A program made the position numbers and the translations under genes. The notes under the pieces were generated by a model. That model was given only the letters and a program-made list of their open reading frames with translations. It did no database searches and was not told the origin of the DNA. This document shows positions 27,438 to 44,878 of a stretch of DNA of 64,000 nucleotides, one piece after another (positions within the stretch are counted from its first letter, which is position 1; each line of letters starts with the position of its first letter). Origin of the DNA: a virus (lineage: Duplodnaviria; Caudoviricetes); the IMG/VR virus record IMGVR_UViG_3300010429_000979, positions 1 through 64,000 of that record; one strand, given 5' to 3'.

Positions 27438-27820
27438 TGGAGAACTCAGGATTAATATTAGGAGAAGGCATCACTTTCCCATTCAACTTAATTAATGGTA
27501 AGGTGGCTGTTGATAGTTCAAATGTTTGTATTGCTTCCTCGATCGTTAATATCTTGGGTTGGCCTACTGGAGATCGGTTATTCCAAAACCATTTCGGATC
27601 TAAATTATTCCATCTCCTGAGTGAACCAAACGATGAAATTACAGCCACTCTAGCAAAGCACTTTATTATTGACGCATTAGAATTACATGAAAAGCGTATT
27701 CGTCTACTAGACGTGAAATTTAGCATCGAAAAAGCACATGAATTAACAATAGTTTTAATATACGAACTTTTATCAACTGGTAAAGTTATGACCTTACCGT
27801 TAACTATAACAAACCTATAA
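27437..27820 (+). CDS. baseplate wedge protein gp25/W-like
   Basis: TGDRLFQNHFGS and HEKRI motifs. Confidence 0.85.
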   Translation: MENSGLILGEGITFPFNLINGKVAVDSSNVCIASSIVNILGWPTGDRLFQNHFGSKLFHLLSEPNDEITATLAKHFIIDALELHEKRIRLLDVKFSIEKAHELTIVLIYELLSTGKVMTLPLTITNL

Positions 27821-27821
27821 C

Positions 27822-29558
27822 ATGGCCAAGATAAATAATCCTTGGGTAAATTACGTTACTCGGTCTTTTTCTGATATAAAATCATCAGTACTGAACAGGG
27901 TAAAAACCCAATGCCCGGAAATAACAGACCTCAGTGATTCAAACATCCTCGTTATCATCATCAGTATCTTTGCAGGTATTGCTGAGATGTTGAATTACTA
28001 CATTGACAACATGGCAAGGGAATCTTACATTGGCTCTGCTAGAAGGCTCTCTTCAATCCTTAAGATTGTCAGGCTGATCAATTACAAAGTAAAATCCTCA
28101 ATCGCTGCTAGCTCTGACCTAACACTAAGTCTGGTTGGGGAAGATGGTAATCCAGTTGAAACCCAGTCACAGATAACTATCCCACTTGAAACCGTATTCT
28201 CAACTGCCTCGGGGTTAGTCTTTATCTCAACTGAGTCAGCCACTATTGAGATAGGGGAAACAGGTACAACAGTTAAGGTAAAACAACATACATTAGCAAG
28301 CCTCCAACTAATCGGTACAGGAAACGGTACTGCATTCCAATCAATCTACCTGCCTTCAGATTATGAACATGGCTCATGTGTAATTACTATAGACAGCGTA
28401 ACCTGGACATACCGGGATTTCTTAGATGTCTCTGGGCCAACAGATAAGCATTACACCACAGAGGTTGATGATTATGGTTTAGCATATATCAAATTTGGAG
28501 ATGGTGTTAACGGTCTTAAGCCCGATACAGGCCTAAGTATTTATCTTACCTACTACCGTACTTCAGGAGCATCTGGTAATTCAAACATAGATACGATCAC
28601 CAGTATCGATTCCAATATTGCAATACCTAATCAGACTCCCGTTATTTCAGAGATACTGGCTACTAACCATATCGCTGCTTCAGGTGGCAGGGATACTGAA
28701 GGGTTAGAGGTTATTAGGAAGTTAGCCCCACTCAGTCTAAGGACATTGAACAGGGCAGTAACTCGTCAGGATTATATTGACATAGCTAAGTTGGCTCCAG
28801 GAGTCGATAAGGCCAGCCTCTATTTCGAATGTGGTAAGAAGGTAGAGGTATACATAGCCCCGATGGGTGGAGGTGTTGCTTCTATCCAGCTATGTAATGA
28901 CACTAATGATTTCATCGATGAGAAGAAGATGGTTACTACTTTCGTATCAGTTCTTCCTACTGGTGAAACTTATATTGGTATGTCAATCTCAGTAACTGGC
29001 AAATTCCGGGTACCATCTATCCTTATCGAACAGGACATCATCACTGAATTAACTCAGGCCTATTCCTATGTCAACAGTGATATCAATAAACCAGTAAGAA
29101 CATCAGACATCATTGCATTGGTTGATAACTTGGAGAAGATCGATTTCCTTGAACTGACAGAGATATATCAGATACCCTATGCAAGGCCTAAGGTTCAAAC
29201 CTTACAGGAATTGGTATGGGAAAGAAAAGTAATGACTGGCTCAACCGATACTCATGAGTGGAGGTTAGTTTTTCAAGAAGAGCCAGTCTATGGCGATAGT
29301 TATTTCAGAGTATACCGGGATAAGGTCTGGAAGAAAAACCTGGCATTCGGTGATTGGTATGACCCCGCCCCAACATCTTTCACTGAATTGAATTTCCTAA
29401 TCCTTGCTGCTGATAACGCTGGCTTAGAGAATGGGGATACCTGGTTATTTAAAACTTACCCCTATAACAAGGACTTAGTCCTTACGGATTTCACTGTACC
29501 CATTATCAGGTCACAGGATATCATTTTGACAATCACTGAACAAAACTACATCGTCTAA
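27822..29558 (+). CDS. baseplate J / gp6-like wedge protein
   Basis: FGDGVNGLKP, GASGN, RAVTRQDY motifs. Confidence 0.85.
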   Translation: MAKINNPWVNYVTRSFSDIKSSVLNRVKTQCPEITDLSDSNILVIIISIFAGIAEMLNYYIDNMARESYIGSARRLSSILKIVRLINYKVKSSIAASSDLTLSLVGEDGNPVETQSQITIPLETVFSTASGLVFISTESATIEIGETGTTVKVKQHTLASLQLIGTGNGTAFQSIYLPSDYEHGSCVITIDSVTWTYRDFLDVSGPTDKHYTTEVDDYGLAYIKFGDGVNGLKPDTGLSIYLTYYRTSGASGNSNIDTITSIDSNIAIPNQTPVISEILATNHIAASGGRDTEGLEVIRKLAPLSLRTLNRAVTRQDYIDIAKLAPGVDKASLYFECGKKVEVYIAPMGGGVASIQLCNDTNDFIDEKKMVTTFVSVLPTGETYIGMSISVTGKFRVPSILIEQDIITELTQAYSYVNSDINKPVRTSDIIALVDNLEKIDFLELTEIYQIPYARPKVQTLQELVWERKVMTGSTDTHEWRLVFQEEPVYGDSYFRVYRDKVWKKNLAFGDWYDPAPTSFTELNFLILAADNAGLENGDTWLFKTYPYNKDLVLTDFTVPIIRSQDIILTITEQNYIV

Positions 29559-30238
29559 TGGTTAATTTCACAAATTGGATATTCGATAGGTTTCCTCGGA
29601 GATTTAAAATCGAAGACTCTTATAAGGATGCCGATGGTAAAGGTCTCCTAGAAAGGATGATGGGTGTGATTGGTGATGAACTCGATGAAGAGATTATACC
29701 ACTCATTGAAGATTACCAAGTCCAACAAAACCCAATCACTTGCGATAGTAAGTTCATTAACCTTATCGCATTCTTTTATGGGAATCCTCCAAGTCCATTA
29801 TCATACGAAGACCTATATAGGAAACTTCTGAGCAAGATAACAGAGGTCAATAAGATCAAAGGAACTGAAGCCTCATACGTTCTGTTCTTTAAACTTATTG
29901 GCCTTGATGTTGCTGTAAGGGAAGTACCATTGGTTGATTACAGATATGACAAGGATAACATTAGGTATGATAATAATGAACACCTAAGGTATGATATGAA
30001 CTGCCCACCTTGTTCTGGTTACTATCTAGACATCCTAGACCATGATAACCTTTACCCAGAGTTCATCCACAACCCAATCGATCCAGAAATCTTTAAGCTC
30101 TTGATGTCCATGATACGGTATTGCGAACCTATCAATGCTAGACTAATTGAGGTAACTTATGATGACACACCATTATACCTTGGAGGTAGCTATGATATCG
30201 ATTATTCATTCAGCTATGACAGGATAAGAAGAAGATAA
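29558..30238 (+). CDS. baseplate wedge protein (P2 gpI-like)
   Basis: Follows the J-like gene; YRKLL...KIKGT pattern. Confidence 0.7.
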   Translation: MVNFTNWIFDRFPRRFKIEDSYKDADGKGLLERMMGVIGDELDEEIIPLIEDYQVQQNPITCDSKFINLIAFFYGNPPSPLSYEDLYRKLLSKITEVNKIKGTEASYVLFFKLIGLDVAVREVPLVDYRYDKDNIRYDNNEHLRYDMNCPPCSGYYLDILDHDNLYPEFIHNPIDPEIFKLLMSMIRYCEPINARLIEVTYDDTPLYLGGSYDIDYSFSYDRIRRR

Positions 30239-30239
30239 T

Positions 30240-31238
30240 ATGGCAAGGACACTAGACCAAAAATTCGCGGAATTAACTCTACTGATCAATAGTATCCTTG
30301 TTGTAAATGAGACTGGCGATATTACCCCACCACGTCACAAATCGATAGTAAACAATTTTAAGGAACTCGTTCAGTGGTTAAAGGTATCTGAGAACTTAGA
30401 TGCAGCAGATTACGTTCAAGAAACAGAAATTGAGTGGAGTCGGTTAATCGTAGGGTTCACATTAGATAATGGTCATGTCTGTGAAAATGATGAGACAGTG
30501 TTACTCACAAACCAAACCAATCTCACAGAGAATGGTATCTGGCAAGTTCGGGTAGCAGGAGAACCAACCAGGCCTACTAACTTCACACCACTAGCCGACC
30601 AAGATGGTTGCATGGTGCTGATAACCAAAAACATTGGAGAAGATAACTTTCTCTTTAAGATTCAGGTATCTGGTTATAAGGTACTTGTTTTCCCCTTAAT
30701 CTGGTCATCAGGAGTAGGTCACTTACAGAATACAGATGTCTACTTAAATTACGGGGGTATCTTCCAAGTCTCTGCTCAAGAGATCTGGGAACATATCCAT
30801 TCAACCATGTCACCTCAGGAAATCGATATCACGGATTTAACTGAGATTGACCTTACCCCATACCCAGACGCAAGATACTTCCTACTCTATTCAACAAATG
30901 AACAGGAAATTATCAGTAGCGTTATTGATAGTAACTCATCAGAGGGAAAACAAATAACCCTGAAGCCAAGAGATAATGGTTTATGGGTAATACTAAGGGA
31001 GGCTCTTGCAGAAGATACGCCTCTCAAACTTCTCACTGGAGTGGATTTCATTATGAAGGAGAAATCACATTACAGTGAATTCAGATTTACGAACGAGGCC
31101 TGGTCACAAGCTGCTGGACTCGGGATTAGAGATATAGTTATGATCGGGGAGAATTGGAGAATGCGTGATGTTAATGGTGCAATGGTTATAGAGAAATACG
31201 ATAATGGTGATTGGGTTGAAATGTCAAATTTAAGTTAA
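30240..31238 (+). CDS. tail-fibre-proximal structural protein, 332 aa (no signal peptide)
   Basis: VLLTNQTNLTENGIWQV motif seen in phage fibre proteins; lies between baseplate and giant gene. Confidence 0.55.
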   Translation: MARTLDQKFAELTLLINSILVVNETGDITPPRHKSIVNNFKELVQWLKVSENLDAADYVQETEIEWSRLIVGFTLDNGHVCENDETVLLTNQTNLTENGIWQVRVAGEPTRPTNFTPLADQDGCMVLITKNIGEDNFLFKIQVSGYKVLVFPLIWSSGVGHLQNTDVYLNYGGIFQVSAQEIWEHIHSTMSPQEIDITDLTEIDLTPYPDARYFLLYSTNEQEIISSVIDSNSSEGKQITLKPRDNGLWVILREALAEDTPLKLLTGVDFIMKEKSHYSEFRFTNEAWSQAAGLGIRDIVMIGENWRMRDVNGAMVIEKYDNGDWVEMSNLS

Positions 31239-31239
31239 T

Positions 31240-34200
31240 ATGAGAAAAATATTTTTCCTTATCTTATTCCTAGTACCTCTCCTGAGCTACTCCCAATATT
31301 ATAAAGTAACCAGAAACCTCAATTCAGATGCGGGGTTTGTTGGTGTTAATACGAACACTGGCGATGGTGCTTCAGAAACGATAATGCTCATAAGAGATAC
31401 AGATACAATGTATATGAGGATGGGTAAAGATTCATCATATATCTTTACCGAGAAGCCACTGTATTTCTTCGGAGAGTATTTACAGATACAGCAGGACTTC
31501 GTCCTTAAGAAGTTTGCTTCTTCAGATACAATGGTCCTGATTGTTAAACCAAATGGATATGTAGATACGATTAGTTTAACCAACCTATTCAATAGCGAAT
31601 CTGGTACAGGAGGTATCTTTATATCATACTGTGATGGTTGTACTCCAGATACTGGATTTATCTTTCTCGGAGATACCCTTATTATAGATACTGCCGGCGG
31701 GTACTGTGAATCATTCATCAGGAACGATACCCTATTCTCTTGTGACACTACAGTGATAGGGGCTACAGGATATTGGGCTAAGTATGATGGTATGTATCTC
31801 ACTCCTAAACAAGGAGAGAATGTGGTAATTGGATCATCAGAGAAACGGCCCAGATCAAAGCTTAATGTTAATGGTGGTGTATTCGTAAGGAAATCAGTAC
31901 ACTCTTATGGAGGATCAGGTGATGTTACCAGTAGTGGCGTTGGATCTGTTAATGCTGCAGATGCCCTAATTATCTCGAGATGGGTTAATGGCAGTATACC
32001 TTGGAACGATAGTTTATATGAGGCTGATGCTTCCGGGAATAATATCATCACGTACAATGAGGTTATTGGTCCTATGTTATTTTTTACTGGTCAGATACCA
32101 GACCTTAAAGCTTGGGCCAGATGGGTAGAGGCTAATTCAGTACAACAGTTCAGAGACAGTACTACCTATATCTATAAGGGCCTTACAATCAGTCCAGCTA
32201 AAAGGGGATATACCCAAGCCACGAGTTACGGAAACTCTGGCCTTTACGTTGATGGGAAAGTCTGGTTACCCACAGTAGGCCAAACAATAAAATTCGATAG
32301 TATCTATGTCCAAGATACTTCTGGTAAAGTAATGACAGTACACAAGAGCCTAGTAGCCCAAGCTAATGGTATAGATAGTTTATATATTGGATTCTGTAAT
32401 GGCTGTACTCCTGACTCAGGTTGGTATTATAATGGCGACTCATTAATCATTGATACAGTAGATAGGTACTGTCCCACGTATTATGCCAATGATACCCTAT
32501 ATGGTTGCGATACAGTAGCTCTTTCAATGAACGGATACTGGGTAAAGGCCGGAGATCTACTATTCCCCTATCAACCCCAATTAGCCGTTCGGATTGGTCC
32601 TGCGAATTATATGCCATCTGCTTCGCTATTTGTAAACTCCGTCAGTGGTACTAGCTTGATCTCACAAACGAACTCAAGTTATGGTAGCTCTGTTTCTGCA
32701 CAAAATCAAAATACCACTGGTGGTGCAGGTATAACTGCTGGGGGTTATATAGGTGTAAGTGGTGGTACCACAAGTAATACTGGTTTAGGGGGATACTTTA
32801 CAAATTGGCAACCAGAACCCAGTCGGCCAGTAGTAGAGATACATTCTAACGGTGGTAAGGGCTTATTCTTTAATTTGGCTAATTCTGGCTCATACCCAAT
32901 CTCAGGTGAAGGTATCTTATTACAAAGGGGGGCAACTGGGACAAACACAATTTCCGGAACGGGTTTTAAAATAAAACAAGTTAATATTGATAATCCCCTG
33001 AATGTGACTGGTTACATGTCAGAATATTATAAGGGGAACACCAGAGTTTCATCAGTTGACGTGAATGGAAATACTTATGCAAGAGGAACCATGAAGGTGG
33101 GGAATATGCCTATCCTATCTGGTACAACTGATACAGCAGTAGTCTGGGATTATAATGACAGCACATATAAACTTAGGAAGGTCGCCGGTGGTACTGTTGG
33201 GGCATTAACTTATGCTGACACACTTACTGATATCGCTACACAATATGATTTAACACAAGTAATCAGTATCGAATCAGACCCAATCTGGATTTCAGATAGC
33301 ATTGATTACCTGCATAAATCAGATACAAATACCAAGGTGTCAAGCCGTTACTGGGTTAATAACCAGGGATTCCTGAAAGTAGAAGGTGATGCTTCTGTAT
33401 CTAATGAAGGTTCTTTGAATGTCATTACCACTAACACCTATCCATCAATCAACAGTAACACCTCTGGAAGTACACCAATCGAGATAAGGAATGGTCCAGC
33501 TGTAGGATTAACATGGAACAACCCCGGTAATTATATTAAGATAGATATCGATACCACTAACATTATCCTTTCAAAACAGCTAGCATCTAGAACATATCAG
33601 AAAATTACTGACACATCTACGAAGGATGCCACAAGGTATTGGGTAGGACAACAAGGATTCTTAGTTAGCGAGGTTGATGGCTCTACCTCAAATGAGATCC
33701 AGAACCTTTCATATAACTCATCAACTCATGCCATCGATATCGATAAAGCAGGGACTTCTGCTATTATACCATTAGCCACAACATCAAATAGCGGATTGCT
33801 TACATCGGCTCAAGCTACTATCCTATATAGCGATAGTATAAAGTGGGCTGCTAAAAAGGATTATGGATTTGCTGATGTAACAGAAACCACGATCTCATTC
33901 AATGATGCTACCCATATCTTTACTCTTGCACCAGTCAGTACCACATGGACCTATATGAGAGCAGGTAAGGTATATACGATTACTGGAAGTAAGACAGTTA
34001 ACCTTGATGATTCACCAGGGGGATTGGTTAATGGCTCAACCTACTTCATTATCATCGACAATACAACAGGAACTCTTACAGCCTCAACAGATGCCTGGAC
34101 ACTAGCAGATACCAAAGTTCCGGTAGCTACGATCAGATGGCATGGTGGACGCTATCCTAAATACTTTCTAGCAGAGGAAAGGCATCAAGCTGGATTCGGT

Positions 34201-37200
34201 AGGATGGTACATAGGAACCTTCACTTCACCAGGGGGGCTCAGATGGTATCCGGGGGATTGGTTGCTGATGCTATTGTTAGTGGTACAACGAATGATGATA
34301 ACACAATTAGCATAACCGATGCTACTATAGCTGATGAGGATTTATTTATTCTTGCAACGTCATTACCTGATGGTGATGGTGCTGGAGGTGACTATCTTAC
34401 CATGTATCATAATGGTGGTAGTTGGACATGGGACACTACGGATATGCCCTATAAGTTTGCTGCTGGTGGATATATCTATTACGATAACGGAACTGATAGT
34501 GTAGTAGGGGGTAATAACAAATTCTATAACTCATATCTTGCTATCACTGACTGGGTAGGACAAGGCAGGCATATCATCTTTCTAGGTCGTGGAGAATTCA
34601 ATTCGGCCACTGCAGCATATTCAGAGAACCCCTTTAACTTTGATTGGACCGGTATACCTATTCAGGAAATCGTTACCATTTATCAGATGACCTGGGAAAG
34701 TGGTAATGCCTACACTACAAAGGGTAAGGTAAGACTTACTAGATTACCTCAAAGGTTATTCGGAACGATCTCTACTACTGTGGGGAGTACACCAACCGTA
34801 GTTGCCAATACTCCACTCTATGGAAATGGTAGCACGGGATCACCATTAAGTATCGATACATTATCTGGACAAGGAGTTGCAACACAATACGATCTTGCTA
34901 TCCACACACAACCCATAAGCAGGGTTACTGGTTTGCAGGATAGTTTAACTCGCATCCATGATACTATCGATAACTATATCCCAAAATATATCGTTGACGC
35001 AGCTGGCGATTTAGTCGTGGGAACGGGGAATAATACCATCAAGAGGTTAGCAAGAGGCTCAGCTGATCAGGTCCTCAAGGTTAATGCGGGTGGTACTGAT
35101 ATAGAGTGGGGAGCTGCAGCAGCTTCAATGGTTTATCCGGGAGCGGGTATACCAGTAAGTACTGGGTCAGCATGGACCACCTCGATAACCAATAACTCCG
35201 CAAATTGGAATACCGCATACGGTTGGGGAAACCATGCGTCAGCAGGTTATGATAACAGTGTTACCAATGAGGGTAGCTTATCTGTAGGTTCGGGAACTGG
35301 CTCAACAAGTGTAATAAACAGTAACACAAGTAGCAGTACCGGGATAACTTTGACAGCCGGAACCGGTTTAGGTATTGCAGAAAATGTTGGAGCATATTCC
35401 ATAACACTGACCAATACCAGCCCAGACAAAACAGTTAGCTTAACAAATGGTACTGCTATAAGTATCACCGGTACATACCCAAGTTTTACAATTAATAACT
35501 CTAGCCCTGACCAAATCGTTGCCCTGACTAACGGTACTGGTATAAGCATTACCGGTACTTATCCAAATTTTACTGTAACAAACCTTGTCCCAGACAGTTC
35601 ATCTAAATATATTCCTAAATATGTGATAGACGCTGCAGGAGATCTGATAGTTGGTACCGGGAATAATACCTTAAATAGGTTGGCTAAAGGAAATGCTCTG
35701 CAAATCCTAAGAGTCAATTCTGGAGGTACAGCATTGGAATGGGCTGATGTTGCAGCAGGTGGGGTAACATCAGTATCTGGAACATCACCAGTAGTATCAT
35801 CAGGGGGGAATACTCCAGCCATCTCGATCAATTCAGATACCCTCACATCCTGGAGAGGGAAACAGAATCATGGGGAAACTGCTTATGGTTGGGGAAATTG
35901 GGCAGGACATACCCAAGCCATCTCAACAGTAAGAGGGTTGCAGGATAGTTTAACGGATAAGATCAATAGTATCAATGATATTGGTACTGGCCCAGGAAAG
36001 GTATTCCATTCTGAATCCGGTGGAAATGTTTACCTACGTTCAATCTATGGAGGAACTGGTATAGCTGTTGTTAATATGCCAAACTATATCGAGGTATATA
36101 ATAATGGGGTAACAGGTTTATCAGGAACATCGCCTATCGCTGTCAGTGCCAGTACTGGATCTATCGCTGTTTCGATCAAGGCTGATACCTTGACTTCCTG
36201 GAGAGGAAAACAAAACCACGGAGAGACGGCATTTGGCTGGGGTAATCATGCAAGTGCAGGATATTTAACATCACAAACATCTCATACAGATGTGGTAGTG
36301 GATGGAGACTTTACCTCAGAGGGGCTAATGAAAAGGGGAGCTAGTGGAGGTACTTATTCAATCGTAACTGATAACTCTGCTAACTGGAATACAGCATACG
36401 GCTGGGGAAATTGGGCAGGTCATACCCAAGCTATATCCACTGTGACAGGTTTACAAGATAGCCTTACCCGTATCCATGATACCATTGATAATTATATCCC
36501 GAAACATATCATCGATGCTGCAGGCGATTTAATCGTGGGATCATCTAATAATGTCCCAGTAAAACTAGCTAAGGGTAATGCATTACAAACTCTTAGAGTA
36601 AATTCTGGTGGGACTGCTCTAGAGTGGGCTGATCCAAAACAGTACTGGACACTGGGAGGTAATGTAGTCTCATTAGATCCGAACTACGAATTAGAGATGG
36701 TCAATTCGGCACAGGGTACTTCACTGGTACGTATCAGTAATGATGTTGCCTCAGTTGAAGATGGCGGACATTCCAGAGGGCTTCAAATAGAGATACCAGC
36801 AGATAACACCCAAAGAACCTTTACATACATACGATACGGTTTATATATTAGTAACTTAGCTGAGAAGAACCATCAAGTTGGTATTTACAATACCTCACAA
36901 CTTAGCCCCACTTCGACCAATTACGTGGGGTATCAGGGATACATAGCTGGTCAGAATGGAAGAACTATGCTACTTACAGGTGGCTCTCCAACATTCGAAG
37001 TATCAAATGCCCCGTATACTGCCGCAAAGATAAGTGGTCACCTTAACTTCAGTTATGCAGGAGGAGGAGGAGCTTCAACATTTGATAGCGTCTGGGTGAA
37101 ATCAACAGTATCTCCGTATAACACTTACCTTGTCCATAAATCATTGATAGGTACTGGTAGTGGGTTAGCTTGGTCAGATACCTTAACTAAGATTGCTACG

Positions 37201-39504
37201 GCCTATGATCTAAGTCAAATATCTACTTCAGGAGTTCCAGCAGATAGTATTCCATTAATTAGGAACTCCGCCAGAGGAGTTTCCTATCTCCGCAATATCA
37301 ATGATAGTGTAGGATTGGGTACCATAACTCCGCAGGCAAGGTTAGACGTTAATGGTTGGTTAAAGGTAAGGAAAGTTCCAGTAGCCTCCACAGCTGATAG
37401 TATGCTGACAATAGAGAATGGAATTTTTAAATCAATCAACTACCTTAATCTTGGTTTTGTATTTTCTAATCAACTATATAGTGCAAGATGTGCTAATGTC
37501 CCCAAGTTCTACCACAACCTCATGCATAACAAACTGTTTCGTGGTGGTGATAGGTTTTCTACTTCTTTTTCTGGTATGGGTTCAACAAGTGCAGCATACT
37601 TATTTGATGGATTCCACGAAAGATATAGTAATAATACTATTTCTGCTAATGCTACAGGAGTAATTACAACTAACTTATCCACATATTCTGAGTATAATGC
37701 CAGTAATGGTATTATTTATCCTCAAGGTAGATTTGTTATGAATTTTTATTTTCCAGATGGAGTTAATGATGTTGCTCCACAAAGAGTTAAAATAGAAATG
37801 TATAAATCAGGTGGGGTAAATCAATGGATGACAGTTGCTGACACAAATAATATCCCTGCAACTACTGCTATACTAGACCTTTGGTATTGGGGTGGTGGAA
37901 ATTATGTTACTCAAATAAAATGGACTATCTATGGTAGAACATCTGGAACTGTAAGACTTGAAGAGTTAGAATATTACCCACATAGGGATGCAGATGACTT
38001 AAATAAAACACCAACAGTAAATAAATACACCGATCAATCATTATACGGTACTTGGACATGGCGTGGAAGTTCTAATACTGCGAATACTTCTTTTGGTGCA
38101 AATCCAGGATATACAACCAACTCCTTTGTAGTGGGAAATAGCACTGGAACAGGTAGATTACATGTAAAAGGTGCAGGTAATACCTCATCTACATGGACAT
38201 CACAATTCCATAATTCAGCAGGAAATAACAATGCCTTTATGATTAGGGATGATGGTTACATAGGTATTGGTACTGCTTCTCCTACAAGTTTCTTGCACAT
38301 GATTAAAACTAATCCTGCAACAGGAAATTTTTATGGTGGGTTTATTGATATTACCTCAGCAGGAACTACAGGTGAACAATCAGGGTTATCTATAGCCATG
38401 AAAGCTGGAGCAACAGGTAATACAATTGCAACTTATGGTTTTGGTGCTTCAAATAACTCAACATCAAGTGGGAATAGCTTAACGAATGGACAAGATGGAT
38501 ATTCAATGAGAGCGGGTTATGCTAATTTAGGTGGATATGCTTATGCCATAGGAACAAACACAGGTCAGAATTATGGTGGAGAATTCTTTGCAGGAAATGC
38601 AAGTAGAAACATAGGCTCATTCAATTCTGCAACAGTAGCCAAAGCATCTGCTACTAATATTGGTACATTCTCAGTAGCCAGGAATACTAATGCTACTTCA
38701 ACTGTTCAAATAGGCGGATACTTCACATTACTTGATTCTAATGCTATGCCAACCTTTGAATCAGCAGCCTTGATAGCAGATAATGCAGGAACCACTTCAC
38801 CCATATTCTTGGCAAGGGATAGAGGAACTACAGTATTCTCAATTAATGATGGTGGAGGGGTAGTGGCTGGCGGCAAGTCAATAATTTTAGGGAATACTGG
38901 GACAACGAGATTTAACATACTTAGCTCAGGTGGTTATCCAAGACTTGAATCCACAAAAACTGATGGTACCATAACAACCCAATGGATAACAGATCCAGCA
39001 GCCGGGAGATCAATCTTTGATTACTCTTACACATTACATGGAGCCAATACTGGATTCGCTATTCGATCAACCATTAATGATGATAATGCAACGGTATTTT
39101 CCGTAAGGGATTCAGATGGTGATATGGTATTATCTAATGGCGGTTATATAAATGCTAAAGGATACCTGGTTGCAGAGAAGACTTTCACTTACGATGGCCT
39201 TAATTCAAATACGATATCTGCCAGTGCCTGTACCGTTGATTGGACTAGTGGCAACCTTCAATCAGTCACACTGAACTCGAATGTAACTTTTACCTTCACA
39301 GCCCCTACAGGACCATCACATCTAACATTGAAGATAACTCATGCTGCCAATACCACTACCTATACTACTACATGGCCTGCTTCAGTTAAATGGCCAGGAG
39401 GTACAGCCTATGCTTCCACTTCAACTTCAGGTGCAGTGGATATCATTACATTCTTTTACGATGGGACTAACTATTATGCTATGCCTTCCAACGATTTTAA
39501 ATAA
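31240..39504 (+). CDS. giant (2754 aa) tail-fibre-like protein with an N-terminal Sec signal peptide
   Basis: Fibre position; S/T/G/N-rich with internal repeats; C-terminal VDWTSGN...TWPASVKWPGG...DIITFFYDG domain typical of phage fibres; N-terminus MRKIFFLILFLVPLLSYS|Q. Confidence 0.7.
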   Translation: MRKIFFLILFLVPLLSYSQYYKVTRNLNSDAGFVGVNTNTGDGASETIMLIRDTDTMYMRMGKDSSYIFTEKPLYFFGEYLQIQQDFVLKKFASSDTMVLIVKPNGYVDTISLTNLFNSESGTGGIFISYCDGCTPDTGFIFLGDTLIIDTAGGYCESFIRNDTLFSCDTTVIGATGYWAKYDGMYLTPKQGENVVIGSSEKRPRSKLNVNGGVFVRKSVHSYGGSGDVTSSGVGSVNAADALIISRWVNGSIPWNDSLYEADASGNNIITYNEVIGPMLFFTGQIPDLKAWARWVEANSVQQFRDSTTYIYKGLTISPAKRGYTQATSYGNSGLYVDGKVWLPTVGQTIKFDSIYVQDTSGKVMTVHKSLVAQANGIDSLYIGFCNGCTPDSGWYYNGDSLIIDTVDRYCPTYYANDTLYGCDTVALSMNGYWVKAGDLLFPYQPQLAVRIGPANYMPSASLFVNSVSGTSLISQTNSSYGSSVSAQNQNTTGGAGITAGGYIGVSGGTTSNTGLGGYFTNWQPEPSRPVVEIHSNGGKGLFFNLANSGSYPISGEGILLQRGATGTNTISGTGFKIKQVNIDNPLNVTGYMSEYYKGNTRVSSVDVNGNTYARGTMKVGNMPILSGTTDTAVVWDYNDSTYKLRKVAGGTVGALTYADTLTDIATQYDLTQVISIESDPIWISDSIDYLHKSDTNTKVSSRYWVNNQGFLKVEGDASVSNEGSLNVITTNTYPSINSNTSGSTPIEIRNGPAVGLTWNNPGNYIKIDIDTTNIILSKQLASRTYQKITDTSTKDATRYWVGQQGFLVSEVDGSTSNEIQNLSYNSSTHAIDIDKAGTSAIIPLATTSNSGLLTSAQATILYSDSIKWAAKKDYGFADVTETTISFNDATHIFTLAPVSTTWTYMRAGKVYTITGSKTVNLDDSPGGLVNGSTYFIIIDNTTGTLTASTDAWTLADTKVPVATIRWHGGRYPKYFLAEERHQAGFGRMVHRNLHFTRGAQMVSGGLVADAIVSGTTNDDNTISITDATIADEDLFILATSLPDGDGAGGDYLTMYHNGGSWTWDTTDMPYKFAAGGYIYYDNGTDSVVGGNNKFYNSYLAITDWVGQGRHIIFLGRGEFNSATAAYSENPFNFDWTGIPIQEIVTIYQMTWESGNAYTTKGKVRLTRLPQRLFGTISTTVGSTPTVVANTPLYGNGSTGSPLSIDTLSGQGVATQYDLAIHTQPISRVTGLQDSLTRIHDTIDNYIPKYIVDAAGDLVVGTGNNTIKRLARGSADQVLKVNAGGTDIEWGAAAASMVYPGAGIPVSTGSAWTTSITNNSANWNTAYGWGNHASAGYDNSVTNEGSLSVGSGTGSTSVINSNTSSSTGITLTAGTGLGIAENVGAYSITLTNTSPDKTVSLTNGTAISITGTYPSFTINNSSPDQIVALTNGTGISITGTYPNFTVTNLVPDSSSKYIPKYVIDAAGDLIVGTGNNTLNRLAKGNALQILRVNSGGTALEWADVAAGGVTSVSGTSPVVSSGGNTPAISINSDTLTSWRGKQNHGETAYGWGNWAGHTQAISTVRGLQDSLTDKINSINDIGTGPGKVFHSESGGNVYLRSIYGGTGIAVVNMPNYIEVYNNGVTGLSGTSPIAVSASTGSIAVSIKADTLTSWRGKQNHGETAFGWGNHASAGYLTSQTSHTDVVVDGDFTSEGLMKRGASGGTYSIVTDNSANWNTAYGWGNWAGHTQAISTVTGLQDSLTRIHDTIDNYIPKHIIDAAGDLIVGSSNNVPVKLAKGNALQTLRVNSGGTALEWADPKQYWTLGGNVVSLDPNYELEMVNSAQGTSLVRISNDVASVEDGGHSRGLQIEIPADNTQRTFTYIRYGLYISNLAEKNHQVGIYNTSQLSPTSTNYVGYQGYIAGQNGRTMLLTGGSPTFEVSNAPYTAAKISGHLNFSYAGGGGASTFDSVWVKSTVSPYNTYLVHKSLIGTGSGLAWSDTLTKIATAYDLSQISTSGVPADSIPLIRNSARGVSYLRNINDSVGLGTITPQARLDVNGWLKVRKVPVASTADSMLTIENGIFKSINYLNLGFVFSNQLYSARCANVPKFYHNLMHNKLFRGGDRFSTSFSGMGSTSAAYLFDGFHERYSNNTISANATGVITTNLSTYSEYNASNGIIYPQGRFVMNFYFPDGVNDVAPQRVKIEMYKSGGVNQWMTVADTNNIPATTAILDLWYWGGGNYVTQIKWTIYGRTSGTVRLEELEYYPHRDADDLNKTPTVNKYTDQSLYGTWTWRGSSNTANTSFGANPGYTTNSFVVGNSTGTGRLHVKGAGNTSSTWTSQFHNSAGNNNAFMIRDDGYIGIGTASPTSFLHMIKTNPATGNFYGGFIDITSAGTTGEQSGLSIAMKAGATGNTIATYGFGASNNSTSSGNSLTNGQDGYSMRAGYANLGGYAYAIGTNTGQNYGGEFFAGNASRNIGSFNSATVAKASATNIGTFSVARNTNATSTVQIGGYFTLLDSNAMPTFESAALIADNAGTTSPIFLARDRGTTVFSINDGGGVVAGGKSIILGNTGTTRFNILSSGGYPRLESTKTDGTITTQWITDPAAGRSIFDYSYTLHGANTGFAIRSTINDDNATVFSVRDSDGDMVLSNGGYINAKGYLVAEKTFTYDGLNSNTISASACTVDWTSGNLQSVTLNSNVTFTFTAPTGPSHLTLKITHAANTTTYTTTWPASVKWPGGTAYASTSTSGAVDIITFFYDGTNYYAMPSNDFK

Positions 39505-40100
39505 TGAGATACCTACTTTCACTTCTTCTCTTTCTTAGCCTAACTGCATCTGGCCAGTTATACCAAAGTGGAAATCCCACTCAGTCAGTCGACGATGCAG
39601 GCTTCGGTCAATATGCCTGGTCAGGAAATTTCAACGATGGCTTTTATTCTGCAAATTGTACCATATCAACTGAATCATCTACATATACCCATCGGTTAAT
39701 CCTAACTCATACGGATATCGCTATTCCTGCTGGGGCTATCATAAAGGGTGTAGAAGTAACAACCTATGTCCAGGCTTTTCAGTTTGGTCACATCACTGAA
39801 AACTGTAGTGATATCTGCTGTTATAGTTACACAGTAGCCCTGACTTCTCCAGGATTCCTTACCTATAAAACTGGAGTTGGTTTTATACCAGGAGATTACA
39901 CAGAGCAGATCTACGGTGGTCCTACAGATTTATGGAGCATTTCTATGAATCACAACGACATCAACAGCGATGACTTTGGTATTTACTTTATTGCTCAGAC
40001 CAAATCATACCAAGGATTTAACGCTTCAGTAAGACTCTGGGGAGCAACGATAAAAGTATACTACGAATTACCAAAAACAAATATATTCTTTGGACGCTAA
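39504..40100 (+). CDS. secreted beta-rich accessory protein, 198 aa
   Basis: Signal peptide MRYLLSLLLFLSLTASG|Q; IPAGAIIKGVEV...YGGPTDLW motif; 1-nt overlap with the giant gene. Confidence 0.7.
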   Translation: MRYLLSLLLFLSLTASGQLYQSGNPTQSVDDAGFGQYAWSGNFNDGFYSANCTISTESSTYTHRLILTHTDIAIPAGAIIKGVEVTTYVQAFQFGHITENCSDICCYSYTVALTSPGFLTYKTGVGFIPGDYTEQIYGGPTDLWSISMNHNDINSDDFGIYFIAQTKSYQGFNASVRLWGATIKVYYELPKTNIFFGR

Positions 40101-40111
40101 TAAATAAAAAC

Positions 40112-40537
40112 ATGAAAAAGACAATCCTTATCATCATGATTATCCTCGCTGGGTTCTCAGTGAATGCCCAGTATTCAATTCAGAAAGTGACCTTGTATGA
40201 TACCACAAGAGCTGATGGTCAACGATTCATCATCTCATATCCTGAGAAGAATCTCGTAATCCATTTACAGGACAGCTGCTTGGGTACAGACTATAACCCT
40301 TTCAATGCCTGTGCTGTCCCAAGTGGTTATATCAGCCTTCAAAATTCTAGGGTCGATGTTGTTATGAAAAAGGTTAGGATCCTAGCTGGTGACACTTTAA
40401 TCAGGTATGAAACTATAACCATTCCATTGTCTCGATTAGAAAATAAGACGGGCCAATTTATAGACAACTCACTTATGAAAAAAGCCTTAAAGCCAACAGC
40501 TAAGGGATGGATAAAAAGAAAGTTAAGCGAAGAATAA
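40112..40537 (+). CDS. secreted protein, 141 aa
   Basis: Signal peptide MKKTILIIMIILAGFSVNA|Q. Confidence 0.7.
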   Translation: MKKTILIIMIILAGFSVNAQYSIQKVTLYDTTRADGQRFIISYPEKNLVIHLQDSCLGTDYNPFNACAVPSGYISLQNSRVDVVMKKVRILAGDTLIRYETITIPLSRLENKTGQFIDNSLMKKALKPTAKGWIKRKLSEE

Positions 40538-40579
40538 CCATTCTGACCGAAGACTAAATTCTTAAATCTAAAACCAACT

Positions 40580-40987
40580 ATGGATTCAACGATATCAACT
40601 GCACTGGAAAAAGTCGATAAGATCGAGGAAACATTAAAAAGCTTCCGTACCCTATTCACTGCTTTTGAACCTGGGTTTATCAAGATGGCAGATGATAACT
40701 CAAGGAAAGCTTTTGGCCTTATGACCAAAAGAGATGACTATGAAATCTATGAATTGGATATTGAGAAGGACTTCTGCACAATCCATCATGCTCACAAATT
40801 AGCCTACGAACTTCACTTAGTCATTCATGGCAAAGTTAATATCAAACAAGATGGCCATGATAACATCCTTTCAACTGGTCAATCGCTAACCACTTCCAAG
40901 GGTCTACTCCATACGTTCATTGCGTTGGAAGACACGAAAATAGTTACCATCGCAGTCCCAACCTTAAACGAAAAACATGGAGATTAA
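40580..40987 (+). CDS. cupin-fold protein
   Basis: HHAH...ELHLVIHGKV...GQS...KGLLHTFIA cupin motifs 1 and 2. Confidence 0.75.
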   Translation: MDSTISTALEKVDKIEETLKSFRTLFTAFEPGFIKMADDNSRKAFGLMTKRDDYEIYELDIEKDFCTIHHAHKLAYELHLVIHGKVNIKQDGHDNILSTGQSLTTSKGLLHTFIALEDTKIVTIAVPTLNEKHGD

Positions 40988-41204
40988 AAACAGTGAACAA
41001 GACAACTGGGCAGCACACAGACTGATGGTCTTAAAAGCCTTAGATAGTATCGAGGATCAGGTAGCAGAATTACGTAAGGATATCTCCGAAGTAAAAACTG
41101 CAGTAACCGTGATGAAAACTCAATCAGCAATGGTAGGGGTAATTATCGGTATCATCGTTTCAGCTGCTGTGACCATCTTCATTAACCTCATCGCTAAGCA
41201 TTAA
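40977..41204 (+). CDS. holin-like / XhlA-like coiled coil plus C-terminal TM protein
   Basis: Coiled coil followed by TM VGVIIGIIVSAAVTIFINLIA. Confidence 0.55.
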   Translation: MEIKNSEQDNWAAHRLMVLKALDSIEDQVAELRKDISEVKTAVTVMKTQSAMVGVIIGIIVSAAVTIFINLIAKH

Positions 41205-41246
41205 CTATTCTAGTTATTGACTATTCACTAACAAATAAATAATCCT

Positions 41247-41534
41247 ATGAAAAGATTCCTTTTTGCATTAACCTTACTCCTGTCGATCATGGTATTACCA
41301 TTGTTCACTATCGCACAGGCAGTAGTCGACACCTCCGCCATTAGCCCTGCACCATCGCAAGGGGCTTCTATATTGGATTGGATCTACTGGTCAGCAATCA
41401 TCATTGCCACTGTCATCTACCCGATTCTCGTTCGACTTATCCCCACTTCGAAGAACTGGGACTGGATCTCTGGCATTATGAGATTATTATCTTGGCTGGT
41501 ACCAAACAATAAAAAAGGCGGAGGTAAACACTAA
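41247..41534 (+). CDS. putative holin (signal peptide plus TM)
   Basis: Two hydrophobic segments, basic C-tail NKKGGGKH, directly before the endolysin. Confidence 0.55.
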   Translation: MKRFLFALTLLLSIMVLPLFTIAQAVVDTSAISPAPSQGASILDWIYWSAIIIATVIYPILVRLIPTSKNWDWISGIMRLLSWLVPNNKKGGGKH

Positions 41535-41956
41535 TGGCCGAAAGCCTAATTCTCGTCGAAAGGTTTCTCAAGAGCGATCAACAAACTCTTGGGAAACTTT
41601 CCGTTATAAATAGTGGACAAGTCACCTTCACATGCCTAACCCAAGAATTACCTTGGAAGGATAATCAACAAAGGATTTCCTGCATACCAATTGGCAATTA
41701 CAGGTATGGTAAAAACAAAGCCTCAACGAAAGTCAAATATCCTCATGTGGATATCTATGATGTCCCGAACAGGGGAGGGGTAAAGATTCATGCAGGTAAC
41801 TACGTAACACAGATCTTAGGTTGCATCGAGGTTGGGAAAGAGCATCTGGATATTAATAAGGATGGTCTCAACGATGTCACTGAAAGTAGGGTAACTCTTA
41901 AGGCATTACTAAAACATTTAACTCCAACCGGCTCAATCCAAATCAGTGAAACCTAA
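41534..41956 (+). CDS. endolysin candidate, DUF5675 (L,D-transpeptidase-like fold)
   Basis: TLGKL...CLTQELPW.DN...SCIP.G.Y...VKIHAGN...LGCIEVG. Confidence 0.8.
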   Translation: MAESLILVERFLKSDQQTLGKLSVINSGQVTFTCLTQELPWKDNQQRISCIPIGNYRYGKNKASTKVKYPHVDIYDVPNRGGVKIHAGNYVTQILGCIEVGKEHLDINKDGLNDVTESRVTLKALLKHLTPTGSIQISET

Positions 41957-42380
41957 AGACGCAATCACCATACTGAAGGGAGCACCATATATCCCTTACA
42001 TCATAATCCTGGTTCTCCTTCTCATTATTGGATTCAGAGAATCAAGTAGCACCCACTACTTCAACCAACTCATTGGAGAGAAACAGAAAGAGATCGATAG
42101 CCTATTCAATGAGAATAAGAAACTCCAAGACTCTACCCTATTCTGGGAATATCGATCAGTAGAATTCCAAGAAGGTATCATCGAAAGGGAAAAACAAATT
42201 GCACTCCTCAGAAAACAAATCTGGATAATAAATAAAAAACATGAAGCAAGTATCCATTCTCTTACTTATCTTAACGATAACGATCAGGTTAAGTTTTTCA
42301 CAAACTACGTCACCAAGTACATACAGTCAGCTGGATACTCTGGTGACAGTGAATATGAAACTAATCCGAGGGGCAAATGA
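41946..42380 (+). CDS. i-spanin-like protein
   Basis: N-terminal TM then a long coiled coil; follows the endolysin. Confidence 0.65.
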   Translation: MKPKDAITILKGAPYIPYIIILVLLLIIGFRESSSTHYFNQLIGEKQKEIDSLFNENKKLQDSTLFWEYRSVEFQEGIIEREKQIALLRKQIWIINKKHEASIHSLTYLNDNDQVKFFTNYVTKYIQSAGYSGDSEYETNPRGK

Positions 42381-42660
42381 GCTTTTCGTAAACGGGGAGA
42401 ATTACCTTGACCAACTAAATGCTTATAGGGATTTGGATTCAAACTACCAAGCTCTCACTGATGAGTATGATTCATTGGTAATTGCTAAGGACAAACAGAT
42501 AGCCTCATTAAAGGAAGAAAATAAGAATACACAAAAGGTCCTAAGCCTTTCAATGGATCAGACAGAATGCTGCAAGGACAGAACAAAGAGATTGGAAAGG
42601 GGGATGTATATTGGAGGTAGCGGATTACTGATACTATGCGTTCTCTTTGCGATATTCTAG
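42241..42660 (+). CDS. overlapping spanin-partner-like protein (signal peptide, coiled coil, C-terminal TM)
   Basis: 140-nt out-of-frame overlap with the previous gene; MKQVSILLLILTITIRLSFS|Q; no lipobox Cys. Confidence 0.55.
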   Translation: MKQVSILLLILTITIRLSFSQTTSPSTYSQLDTLVTVNMKLIRGANELFVNGENYLDQLNAYRDLDSNYQALTDEYDSLVIAKDKQIASLKEENKNTQKVLSLSMDQTECCKDRTKRLERGMYIGGSGLLILCVLFAIF

Positions 42661-42776
42661 TATAAATTTTTAATTTGCATATAAGAATATACTCAAAAGC
42701 AAATTAAGTGCACTAGATAAACCCTTAGGATGCAAGGATTTCATTTTTATTATAATAATGCAATAAGCAAAAAGCA

Positions 42777-44099
42777 ATGACTCAATTCAGGACAACAGAA
42801 TTTCAAAATTTAATCGAATCATATCCCCTGAATAGGGCTAGAGTTGCGCTATTTCCAAAGGGTAGATATCATGGATTCGATAGGATTGCTCGTAGGGCTG
42901 GGGTACCAACAGTACCAACTTCAATCCTGATTGATCTCAATCACAGTGGCAGTCCTTTCTATCCTGTCCTTGAAACGAATACTCCAGGCCCTGCAACTGG
43001 CGTAGTGGTAGCTCCAGTGGGGGCTCTACTTATGTCAGATGATGCATATCAGTTCGAGATTGATGAGAACACAGATGGACAAGGAAGAACTCGATACGAT
43101 ACAATTTATGTATCATACAGCTGGGAACAAATCGAAGATGGTGCTCCTTTCTCAGTAGAGATGATTAAGGGATCTCCCGGATCAGTATTCCCCGCAGTAT
43201 CAGATCCAAACACAGATCTGATAGTTGGAGTTATCTCAGTCCCCTCTTTACCTACTGGTACTCTAACATTTGAAGATCTCACATATACTGAGACTGTAAT
43301 ACCAGGAGTTGGTTATCAGGACCCCAATAACTACGTCCCAGATTCTGGTGGTACATTCAATGGCCCGATCACTATGCAGGATATGCTTACCCTGTATGGT
43401 TACTTTAAAACCTATCCCGATACCGCAGTCATCGATGGGACTATCATACAGTGTAATGATAATGGCTTCTATCATGTTGTAGACCTTAACAACATGGCAA
43501 CAGTCCTTGATCAAGTCCAACATAATACAGATGAGATTACATTGGGAACTGTGTTATGGATCAAGTTCAATAACGTTGGTGCTGGCTCTTACCTAAAGAA
43601 TCAGTATCCAGCAACAATCAACTGTATCGTTAATCCTTCAACCACCCACTTGTATCTCGAATCGGGTTGTATTGTTGGGTTTATCAAAACGAACTCAGCC
43701 ACTGCAAACCATGTATGGCAAGTCCTTACGATCATGAAAAAGGATTTCGTACATAACTTCTATAACATCACACCTACCGCAGCTTGGACCCAAGACTTTC
43801 CAAGAGCTGCTGCCTCTGTTAATACCCAGAACAATACCGTTATCTTGAAAGGCCACTTATCAAAGGCTTCACCATCTACGGTAACTGGTATTGCAATCCA
43901 GGTTGGAGAACTGCCAAACGCCAATCTCTATCCACAATATCCAATCTTCTTCCCTGTACCGGTAAATGAAAGTGGGGACATGGGAACTATAGAGATACTG
44001 GCTAACGGTACGATTAACCTCTATGCAACTGGGTCATACCAAATGACAATAACGATGGTATCATTCGATGGGATTTCCTATCAAACGAAAGAATGGTAA
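42777..44099 (+). CDS. putative tail / fibre-associated structural protein, 440 aa
   Basis: C-terminal VILKG...GELP...P...F.V...IEILANG.I...VSFDGISY domain typical of phage tail proteins. Confidence 0.55.
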   Translation: MTQFRTTEFQNLIESYPLNRARVALFPKGRYHGFDRIARRAGVPTVPTSILIDLNHSGSPFYPVLETNTPGPATGVVVAPVGALLMSDDAYQFEIDENTDGQGRTRYDTIYVSYSWEQIEDGAPFSVEMIKGSPGSVFPAVSDPNTDLIVGVISVPSLPTGTLTFEDLTYTETVIPGVGYQDPNNYVPDSGGTFNGPITMQDMLTLYGYFKTYPDTAVIDGTIIQCNDNGFYHVVDLNNMATVLDQVQHNTDEITLGTVLWIKFNNVGAGSYLKNQYPATINCIVNPSTTHLYLESGCIVGFIKTNSATANHVWQVLTIMKKDFVHNFYNITPTAAWTQDFPRAAASVNTQNNTVILKGHLSKASPSTVTGIAIQVGELPNANLYPQYPIFFPVPVNESGDMGTIEILANGTINLYATGSYQMTITMVSFDGISYQTKEW

Positions 44100-44725
44100 G
44101 TTAGGAAATAAGATTTTGCTTCTTCGATTGCTTCCTTGATTTCCCGGCGGGCTCTGGATATATAATCCAGGGCCCTTTTCGTTTGATCTATCCCCAGAAA
44201 TTCAAGGATGATATGAGAAGGGATATGAGAATTGCTAGAAGGCAATTTATCAAGGATATAAAGGGGAGGGTGTAATTCAATTTCAAAGATTTGATAGGCC
44301 TCTTCACTAATCCTTTTCTTAATAAATTCTAAGGCAAGGTTAAGGAAGATCTCCTTCTCATCCAATTCTGTTTGATCCGGGATGATATTAACTAGCGGGT
44401 ATTCATCGATGCTAATATTATTAGCATATAACTCTACGTACTCGGCAGTGTATGCCTTTCTGAGAATCCTATTTTTAAAGTTTTGCAGGGAATTAATAAT
44501 GTGGCCAAGCAATACTTTTTCATCAACCTTATCGTGATACTTATTAAATGCATAAATAAATTTATCATCGAACCATGAAAGCACTTGATCCTTTGTTACA
44601 CCATATCTCCGATGATCGATATGATAAGTTAAACTCTTTCTTAGGTTTTCTGTCCTTTTGTAAAGGTCATTGAATAATGCACGGTCATAGTTGTCAGACA
44701 TAGGTTTAAGTCGGTGTAATTCCAT
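44081..44725 (-). CDS. phage-encoded sigma70/ECF-like transcription factor (inferred)
   Basis: 214 aa helical; region 2-like segment (QVLSWFDDKFIYAFNKY...HIINSLQNFKNRILRK) and region 4-like HTH C-terminus; divergent from dnaB. Confidence 0.55.
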   Translation of the reverse strand: MELHRLKPMSDNYDRALFNDLYKRTENLRKSLTYHIDHRRYGVTKDQVLSWFDDKFIYAFNKYHDKVDEKVLLGHIINSLQNFKNRILRKAYTAEYVELYANNISIDEYPLVNIIPDQTELDEKEIFLNLALEFIKKRISEEAYQIFEIELHPPLYILDKLPSSNSHIPSHIILEFLGIDQTKRALDYISRARREIKEAIEEAKSYFLTYHSFV

Positions 44726-44766
44726 GTAGCTAAGGGTTAGGGGTTATTACTTAAAATAATAATATG

Positions 44767-44810
44767 CAAATATAATACAATGTTAACTAATATGTATCAC
44801 TTGTTAATAA
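44767..44810 (-). promoter_or_regulatory. Bacteroidota-type promoter for the sigma-like gene
   Basis: Minus strand TTATTAACAA-N26-TATATTTG(CA), about 40 nt before the ATG at 44725. Confidence 0.6.
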
Positions 44811-44831
44811 ATATTTTTTAGGGATATAGCG

Positions 44832-44869
44832 GATACTATTATACTGAGATTTACTATTATAAAATATAA
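44832..44869 (+). promoter_or_regulatory. two tandem ACTATT motifs before dnaB
   Basis: GATACTATT (44832) and TTACTATTATAAAATATAA (44851); second ACTATT is 26 nt before the ATG. Confidence 0.5.
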
Positions 44870-44878
44870 TATCGACTT

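Follow-up and report, generated by a model that had tools for sequence, protein, structure and literature searches.

A giant tail fibre with a Bacteroidota-type signal peptide in a contractile-tailed phage: a candidate for maturation in the periplasm

The locus described here lies in the first 64 kb (64,000 nucleotides; hereafter the window) of an 81,313-bp IMG/VR virus record (IMGVR_UViG_3300010429_000979), which has direct terminal repeats, is rated complete and represents a contractile-tailed phage (myovirus) of Bacteroidota. Its tail-fibre region encodes a giant fibre of 2754 amino acids (aa; P0001) followed by two small proteins (P0002 and P0003), and all three begin with a signal peptide followed by Gln. 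Judged by their sequences, these N-termini are very probably working leaders for the Sec pathway and signal peptidase I (SPase I) of the Bacteroidota type. Export by itself is likelier than the full scenario, namely that the fibre is exported through Sec, matures in the periplasm and joins the particles at lysis; that scenario is the best reading of the locus, and we regard its chances as evenly balanced.

The giant fibre and its signal peptide

P0001 is, by its position and sequence features, a bona fide tail fibre: it occupies the fibre position, following the genes for gpV, gp25, gpJ, a gpI-like protein and a 332-aa open reading frame (ORF; Table 1), and it carries fibre repeats and a tail-fibre tip domain. 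The original prediction had taken the end of the protein, with its WPASVKWPGG motif, to be of the phage-fibre type, and the matches bear this out: the domain matches phrog_9017 at E 9.7e-6, a family named "tail fiber protein," and tblastn aligns it with a product of MW202476 annotated as "putative tail fiber" (36.5% over 104 aa). The same tip domain is present in one of the related giants (P0004), and in Pfam and PHROG scans P0001 is the sole protein of the genome with tail-fibre signatures.

P0001 is a mosaic fibre. Its internal repeats include two diverged four-Cys modules (aa 116-226 and 371-484), the first of which is common to the signal-bearing relatives P0004-P0009 and P0011. The segment that follows the first module (aa 227-271) resembles a dockerin; its only Pfam match is Dockerin_1 (PF00404; E 0.011 and 16.3 bits, below the gathering score of 22.9), and precomputed Dockerin_1 matches exist for the homologous stretches of P0014 and P0004. 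No cohesin-like partner for this module was found in the 332-aa, gpI-like and 440-aa proteins at E up to 10. The fibre repeats farther along are shared with other giant fibres, some of which have a signal peptide and some of which do not. A module of ~300 aa (aa 868-1195; 33841-34824) is 41-44% identical to parts of the leaderless giants P0017 (3167 aa) and P0018 (2038 aa); it was assigned to no family, and may represent a domain for receptor binding or catalysis that is swapped between exported and non-exported fibres. Sequence searches of the PDB returned nothing useful.

The translations of the three genes give exactly the N-termini quoted in the original prediction, and the anatomy of n-, h- and c-regions that it described is confirmed. 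The leader of P0001 consists of an RK n-region, a 12-residue h-region and SYS at positions -3 to -1, with the cut predicted after aa 18; that of P0002 has R, an 11-residue h-region and ASG (cut after aa 17), and that of P0003 has KK, a 12-residue h-region and VNA (cut after aa 19). At 11-12 residues, none of the h-regions is long enough to anchor a protein in the membrane. Each start codon is the first in its ORF and lies close against the gene before it (TAATATG at 31236-31242, a TAATG overlap at 39502-39506, and an 11-nt spacer before 40112), and the next in-frame Met of P0001 is aa 49; a true start downstream of the hydrophobic segment is therefore unlikely. A type IX secretion system (T9SS) C-terminal domain and a lipobox, neither of which had been visible on first reading, are indeed missing: P0001-P0003 have no Pfam or NCBIfam match to Por_Secre_tail, TIGR04183 or TIGR04131, position +1 is Gln rather than Cys, and no Cys lies near the cleavage site.

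An n/h/c scan of the 109 ORFs of the complete genome flags six, namely P0001-P0003 and the ORFs at 5978-6322 (-), 41247-41534 (+) and 72863-73261 (+). The claim that the signal peptides are confined, among structural genes, to the three fibre-locus genes holds, with no head, sheath, tape-measure, hub, gp25, gpJ or gpI gene flagged, but the three other positives are non-structural ORFs. Gln stands at +1 in five of the six, as against 3.2% Gln across the proteome, and a run of three leader ORFs among 109, given six positives, appears in 1.0% of shuffles. Since Gln at +1 can be selected only where the leader is cut, its conservation argues for cleavage. As to the remaining positives, the small ORF at 5978-6322 has a leader-like N-terminus with AFS and then Gln, the small ORF at 72863-73261, beyond the window, likewise has a leader-like N-terminus, and the ORF at 41247-41534, inside the lysis cassette, is a candidate spanin-like or periplasmic lysis factor.

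Sequon excess and relatives of the fibre

The O-glycosylation motif of Bacteroidota, D-S/T-A/L/V/I/M/T, is modified on non-cytoplasmic proteins only, usually near-completely, and engineered motifs are modified too (review, PMC12871550); none of the searchable papers reports a phage protein among the substrates. P0001 contains 36 such sequons (D[ST][AILVMT]), as against 12.8 expected from composition (2.8-fold, z 6.9, 0 of 2000 shuffles), and 24 as against 9.7 when the internal repeats are collapsed (z 5.0). The control motifs are not enriched, the reversed motif being found 10 times (12.6 expected) and D[ST] followed by another residue 13 times (19.6 expected), and the rest of the phage proteome holds 59 sequons where 60.2 are expected. 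All 36 are located within the first 2060 residues of P0001 and none in the last 694; P0002 has none. Sequons are enriched 2.4-6.8-fold in P0004-P0011, P0029 and P0030, and in none of the leaderless giants (0.72 overall). In P0019 they are enriched 2.7-fold but the reversed control is enriched 3.1-fold, which suggests a repeat effect. These counts support the sequon excess as an independent, sequence-level mark of an extracytoplasmic life of P0001, glycosylation itself being predicted. The dockerin-like module, with its sub-threshold Pfam match, and the conserved Cys residues of the two four-Cys modules point the same way.

An exhaustive HMMER search with residues 1-460 of P0001 yields 12 relatives that have in common the four-Cys module and the dockerin-like segment, and every full-length relative from a Bacteroidota-type context starts with a leader and then Gln. 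A word-based search over the whole length yields 15 giants that share the fibre repeats or the ~300-aa module, nine of which have a leader followed by Gln. All 16 leader-carrying, module-sharing proteins from Bacteroidota-type contexts have Gln at +1, though their leader sequences differ.

The genomic settings of these proteins are diverse. P0014 and P0022 belong to the tail modules of crAss-like phages of 97 kb (L009) and 140 kb (L012), respectively; in an HK97-type siphophage (L014), P0030 is encoded after the genes for capsid, connector, tape measure and distal tail, and P0029 has a similar position in another (L013), the signal-bearing protein being the only large distal-tail candidate in both. 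P0005 and P0006 are encoded by Bacteroidales prophages, beside gyrA/clpB or an integrase gene. A scan of genome contigs found one prophage in a Bacteroidales metagenome-assembled genome, and a search of viral contigs with an alignment of the Cys/dockerin module found no related loci. At most of the loci (L003, L005, L007, L012, L013 and L014), at least one further leader-bearing ORF lies near the fibre, usually with Gln; the small neighbours at L003, L005 and L014 have no detectable similarity to each other, to P0002 or to P0003. Thus, the arrangement of a putatively exported fibre with one or more putatively exported neighbours appears to recur across podovirus, siphovirus and myovirus types, reflecting a common host phylum and not common ancestry.

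Several further features of these loci were seen. Exported-type proteins stand beside the fibre in L009 (19264-20430), L012 (21860-22819) and L007 (11639-14237), and these neighbours include a Peptidase_C10 protein with a weak dockerin match, an arabinofuranosidase-type catalytic domain with a leader and Gln, a protein of 705 aa with a leader, and an ORF of 165 aa in which AFG followed by C resembles a lipobox. The DUF5675 family of the lysis cassette recurs at the end of the crAss-like tail module of L009. Starts assigned by gene callers are inconsistent, with P0004 truncated inside its leader and P0006, P0021 and P0023 extended upstream (L007 9974-11635; L005 9977-13729); automated surveys of leaders are therefore expected to under-count such genes.

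Gene neighbourhood and small downstream proteins

The features of the window are collected in Table 1. The order of genes over 27822-46246 is kept with the human-gut phages MT121964 (L002) and KX501134 (L011), comprising baseplate J, the gpI-like protein, the lysis genes, a reverse-strand gene of 214/215 aa and the helicase. The 440-aa ORF has the same position as a 636-aa ORF of MT121964 and no similarity to it, and a search of viral contigs with baseplate J found no related loci.

Table 1. Features of the tail, fibre and lysis regions (positions in the window).
Feature	Position	Strand	Remarks
Sheath	18045-19877		Contractile-tail gene
Tape measure	21387-23387		Tail gene
gpV-like spike OB (oligonucleotide/oligosaccharide-binding) domain	26724-27437	+	Pfam/PHROG matches (PF04717, PF04965, PF04865, phrog_219/261 across 26724-30238); without signal peptide
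gp25/gpW	27437-27820	+	Baseplate gene; without signal peptide
Baseplate J	27822-29558	+	Baseplate gene; without signal peptide
gpI-like protein	29558-30238	+	226 aa; homologous to the product encoded next to baseplate J, downstream, in MT121964 (gut phage; E 4e-11); without signal peptide
332-aa orphan ORF (ORFan)	30240-31238	+	No signal peptide; stop 1 nt before fibre ATG
Giant tail fibre P0001	31240-39504	+	2754 aa; Sec/SPase I-type signal peptide
P0001 signal peptide	31240-31293	+	aa 1-18; Gln19 would be the mature N-terminus
Four-Cys module 1	31585-31800	+	C131, C134, C156, C168; CxGC...C...C; conserved DT sequons
Dockerin-like Ca-binding module	31918-32052	+	aa 227-271; weak Pfam match
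Four-Cys module 2	32350-32691	+	aa 371-484; diverged copy of module 1, 41-45% identity; Cys and sequon positions kept
Phage-fibre repeat region	34828-36639	+	aa ~1197-1800; three to four copies
Tail-fibre tip domain	39175-39471	+	aa 2646-2744; WPASVKWPGG region; 0 sequons
P0002, predicted exported ORFan	39504-40100	+	198 aa; signal aa 1-17, Gln18; 4 Cys
P0003, predicted exported ORF	40112-40537	+	141 aa; signal aa 1-19, Gln20; 2 Cys; 2 sequons
Cupin-domain ORF	40580-40987	+	PF07883, E 7e-7; no signal; between exported block and lysis genes
XhlA-like protein	40977-41204	+	75 aa; phrog_1193; lysis cassette (40977-42380)
ORF with signal and Gln	41247-41534	+	95 aa; lysis cassette; TIA then Gln
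DUF5675 lysin-type protein	41534-41956	+	E 9.5e-24; lysis cassette
Transmembrane protein	41946-42380	+	144 aa; lysis cassette
440-aa ORF	42777-44099		After lysis cassette; followed by reverse-strand 214-aa gene and DnaB-like helicase

P0002 has no homologue among 5.8e9 proteins and no related loci in viral contigs. Its ESM Atlas model is a beta-sandwich with a predicted template modelling score (pTM) of 0.75, whose structural neighbours are viral clusters of ~200 aa and beta-sandwich domains, and which resembles carbohydrate-binding modules; on this model, P0002 is most simply seen as a co-exported accessory. P0003 has no usable ESM Atlas match and no recognizable relatives or fold, and neither protein matches the Tfa, gpG or gp38 families in Pfam, PHROG or NCBIfam. 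Single-sequence AlphaFold2 models were unusable, the predicted local distance difference test (pLDDT) being 33 for the 332-aa ORFan and 36 for mature P0002. The evidence for a fibre-chaperone role is position and the overlap of the P0002 start with the fibre stop, and P0002 and P0003 might just as well be chaperones as glycan binders or exclusion proteins. That P0001-P0003 form a system we infer from their position and shared export signals.

Proposed route, alternatives and known systems

A feasible route for the fibre would be as follows. Late in infection, the 2754-aa chain would pass unfolded through SecYEG and be cut after Ser18, whereupon the host glutaminyl cyclase would turn the new N-terminal Gln into pyroglutamate, and the general periplasmic system of the host would probably O-glycosylate the D-S/T-hydrophobic sequons. 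The fibre would fold and trimerize in the periplasm, whose Ca2+ could serve the dockerin-like module. P0002 and P0003 would be co-exported and act there too, their likeliest role being that of a fibre accessory, a chaperone or a glycan binder. The cytoplasm would meanwhile build fibreless particles with a complete gpV/gp25/gpJ/gpI baseplate. Since there is neither a T9SS domain nor a lipobox, the fibre would stay periplasmic until the adjacent lysis cassette opens the envelope and mixes periplasmic fibres with cytoplasmic particles, on which it would dock, perhaps via the 332-aa ORFan, a possible cytoplasmic adaptor, or via the dockerin-like module. We infer actual export, cleavage, glycosylation, periplasmic folding, docking after lysis and the roles of P0002 and P0003. 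The proposal of an exported, periplasmic fibre system is thus partly supported, with genuine-looking signals, a bona fide fibre, the sequon excess and a precedent in Cellulophaga phage phi10:1 in its favour; P0002 and P0003, as putative fibre components, find no help from sequence relatives.

Several observations weigh against this route. The leaders were called with a home-made scan and known rules, and the first 100 mature residues of P0001 have no relatives in the exhaustive HMMER search. The homologue survey upheld a conserved leader among full-length relatives from Bacteroidota contexts, but six of the 15 module-sharing giants are leaderless, and a GC-rich phage has the tip domain on a fibre that lacks a leader. 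Folding in the cytoplasm is therefore within the reach of these modules, which are ordinary phage-fibre modules with the leader as an add-on. Fibres gp22-gp26 of the cultured Bacteroides phage crAss001 also have no leader, which, taken with the leaders of Cellulophaga phages, indicates that the trait is common but not universal. In the signal-bearing giants of crAss-like phages (P0021-P0027 and P0031, e.g., L012 10001-19504), sequons are depleted to 0.5-0.9 times the expectation, and glycosylation is therefore not a general corollary of the leader. The 332-aa ORFan has no homologue in 5.8e9 proteins and no Pfam/NCBIfam match, and thus no docking partner was found. The detection of Cellulophaga proteins in virion preparations by mass spectrometry could include co-purifying envelope material. 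Lastly, in the nearest relatives by baseplate J (MT121964 and KX501134; 36-37% identity), the whole 30240-40537 block is absent and the gpI-like gene leads straight into the lysis genes; this marks the block as an accessory insertion specific to one lineage, and even a basic particle that lacks it may be infectious.

One alternative concerns P0002 and P0003 only, which might, although this is on the whole rather doubtful, be periplasmic superinfection-exclusion or receptor-masking proteins matched to the receptor of the fibre, like Llp of T5 or Cor of phi80. Their location directly after the receptor-binding gene, their small size and fast evolution, the mutual dissimilarity of the corresponding neighbours in L003, L005 and L014, and their being ORFans would all suit such a role. 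Against this, they have no lipobox, unlike the lipoprotein Llp, the start of P0002 overlaps the fibre stop as in fibre-chaperone pairs, and the beta-sandwich of P0002 resembles domains appended to the baseplate Dit proteins of phages.

An unlikely alternative extends a non-virion role to all three proteins, which would be exported and act in the periplasm or envelope, or as free proteins after release; they might be glycan-binding or adhesive factors, blockers of receptor or debris that shield progeny from lysed cells, or agents of superinfection exclusion, and the particle would infect with a simple baseplate or another protein, e.g., the 440-aa ORF product. Exported genes within tail-fibre regions exist in lom of lambda, llp of T5 and cor of phi80, and the closest baseplate J relatives, presumably infectious, lack the block, as an accessory block would imply. 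The Bacteroidales prophage counterparts follow the endolysin gene close to where the prophage ends, as is typical of morons; P0002 looks like a carbohydrate-binding module; and proteins of Porphyromonas gingivalis phages that likewise have a leader followed by Gln have been interpreted as envelope modifiers (PMC10367356). On the other hand, an 8.3-kb late gene in the fibre slot, with repeats and a tip common to leaderless fibres, would be costly for a non-structural role; no integrase is seen among the annotated genes of this phage; without a T9SS domain or lipobox, the cell surface is out of reach before lysis; the signal-bearing protein of L013 and L014 is the only large distal-tail candidate there; and the Cellulophaga counterparts are annotated as virion proteins on the basis of tandem mass spectrometry (MS/MS).

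The third alternative, quite improbable, is that the leader plays no part in export. The hydrophobic N-terminus would then be kept on a cytoplasmic fibre as a buried attachment or trimerization element, or because Sec is overwhelmed or shut off late in infection, or it would be internalized by fusion with the 332-aa product. The textbook expectation that all parts of tailed phages assemble in the cytoplasm, the same modules on leaderless proteins, and the geometry of the junction, where the reading frame of the fibre gene is +1 to that of the 332-aa gene, would permit it; yet Gln at +1, like the small residues at -3 and -1, is kept across differing leaders at many loci, which is sensible only with a signal peptidase cut, the short h-region with N-terminal Lys/Arg is a strong substrate for Sec and the signal recognition particle (SRP), the sequon excess would be pointless in the cytoplasm, and P0002 and P0003 carry the same signals with different junction geometries. 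A +1 frameshift fusion in particular was rejected, as 31236-31242 contains no slippery sequence, and the upstream neighbours vary among loci.

If the fibre is indeed exported, the consequences would reach beyond this locus. The assembly of tailed phages is taught as purely cytoplasmic, and a Sec-dependent fibre would amount to a second assembly compartment, with infectivity relying on SecYEG, signal peptidase I and glutaminyl cyclase of the host, and perhaps on its O-glycosylation machinery. Export would also account for the trouble that recombinant fibres and depolymerases of Bacteroidota phages may give when made with native N-termini. Virions would bear host-type glycans, which would matter for how Bacteroidota phages of gut, oral and marine settings are recognized by the immune system and bind mucus, and for predicting their host range. 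A leader with Gln on fibre genes also offers a cheap rule for assigning uncultured phages to Bacteroidota hosts. More tentatively, many Bacteroidota phages of all three tail morphotypes may build their virions in two compartments, with capsid, tail and baseplate made in the cytoplasm and the two halves joined only at lysis, and the periplasmic receptor-binding fibres, spikes and helpers may, as part of the same tentative claim, gain pyroglutamate caps, host O-glycans and Ca-dependent dockerin-like modules; the fibre would then be coated with glycans specific to the host species.

Among known systems, the classical fibre modules of myoviruses (gpH/gpG of P2, gpS/gpU of Mu and gp34-38 of T4) have the same order as this locus, with spike, gp25, gpJ, gpI, fibre and one or more small downstream genes; unlike P0001-P0003, the fibres and chaperones encoded there lack signal peptides, and their folding is cytoplasmic. 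The long fibres of T4 attach last and can attach in vitro, so that late docking is mechanically plausible.

In Bacteroidota, the Q-rule describes substrates of signal peptidase I with Gln at +1 (Bochtler, 2018, PMC5837995; Szczesniak, 2023, PMC10653852); it covers ~71% of these substrates across the phylum, is described as exclusive to it and is given a stabilizing role (PMC10653852). P0001-P0003 resemble such substrates in having a leader followed by Gln, where pyroglutamate is expected to stabilize, and phages of the phylum already copy the rule: P. gingivalis phages encode five Q-rule proteins of unknown function that are interpreted as envelope modifiers (PMC10367356), whereas here the substrate is the tail fibre itself. 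In the Hankyphage study, missing signal peptides on phage target proteins of diversity-generating retroelements were taken as support for a phage and not a bacterial origin (PMC6199706). No paper on exported or glycosylated tail fibres was found in the literature searched. P0001 shares with the O-glycoproteins of Bacteroidota the motif that is 2.8-fold enriched in it. By description, it can also be likened to the mosaic adhesive trimer (MAT) fibres of Bdellovibrio, which are described as phage-fibre-like chimeric trimers acting as glycan-recognizing adhesins outside the cytoplasm (Caulton, 2024, PMC10769870); MAT fibres are surface proteins of a bacterial predator and not virion parts.

The closest parallel comes from phi10:1 (KC821618), in which gp091-gp094, at the distal-tail end, are annotated in the record as "structural protein" from experimental MS/MS proteomics, and in which these four proteins and the pectate lyase gp095 all start with a leader and then Gln. 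Records of 33 cultured Cellulophaga phages contain relatives of gp093, and several of these carry the structural label as well; no paper on the leaders of gp091-gp095 was found. An alignment of the P0001 N-terminus with gp092 (26% identity) was rejected as homology, being gappy and driven by the leader. The two loci are thus alike in that consecutive distal-tail genes of a Bacteroidota phage carry a leader and Gln, and they differ in that phi10:1 is a siphovirus and the present phage a myovirus, with no credible homology of gp091-gp095 to P0001-P0003. The cultured Cellulophaga phages provide a ready test system. The present locus adds a contractile-tailed case with a textbook gpV/gp25/gpJ/gpI baseplate, a 2754-aa fibre, a dockerin-like module and an insertion relative to its nearest relatives.

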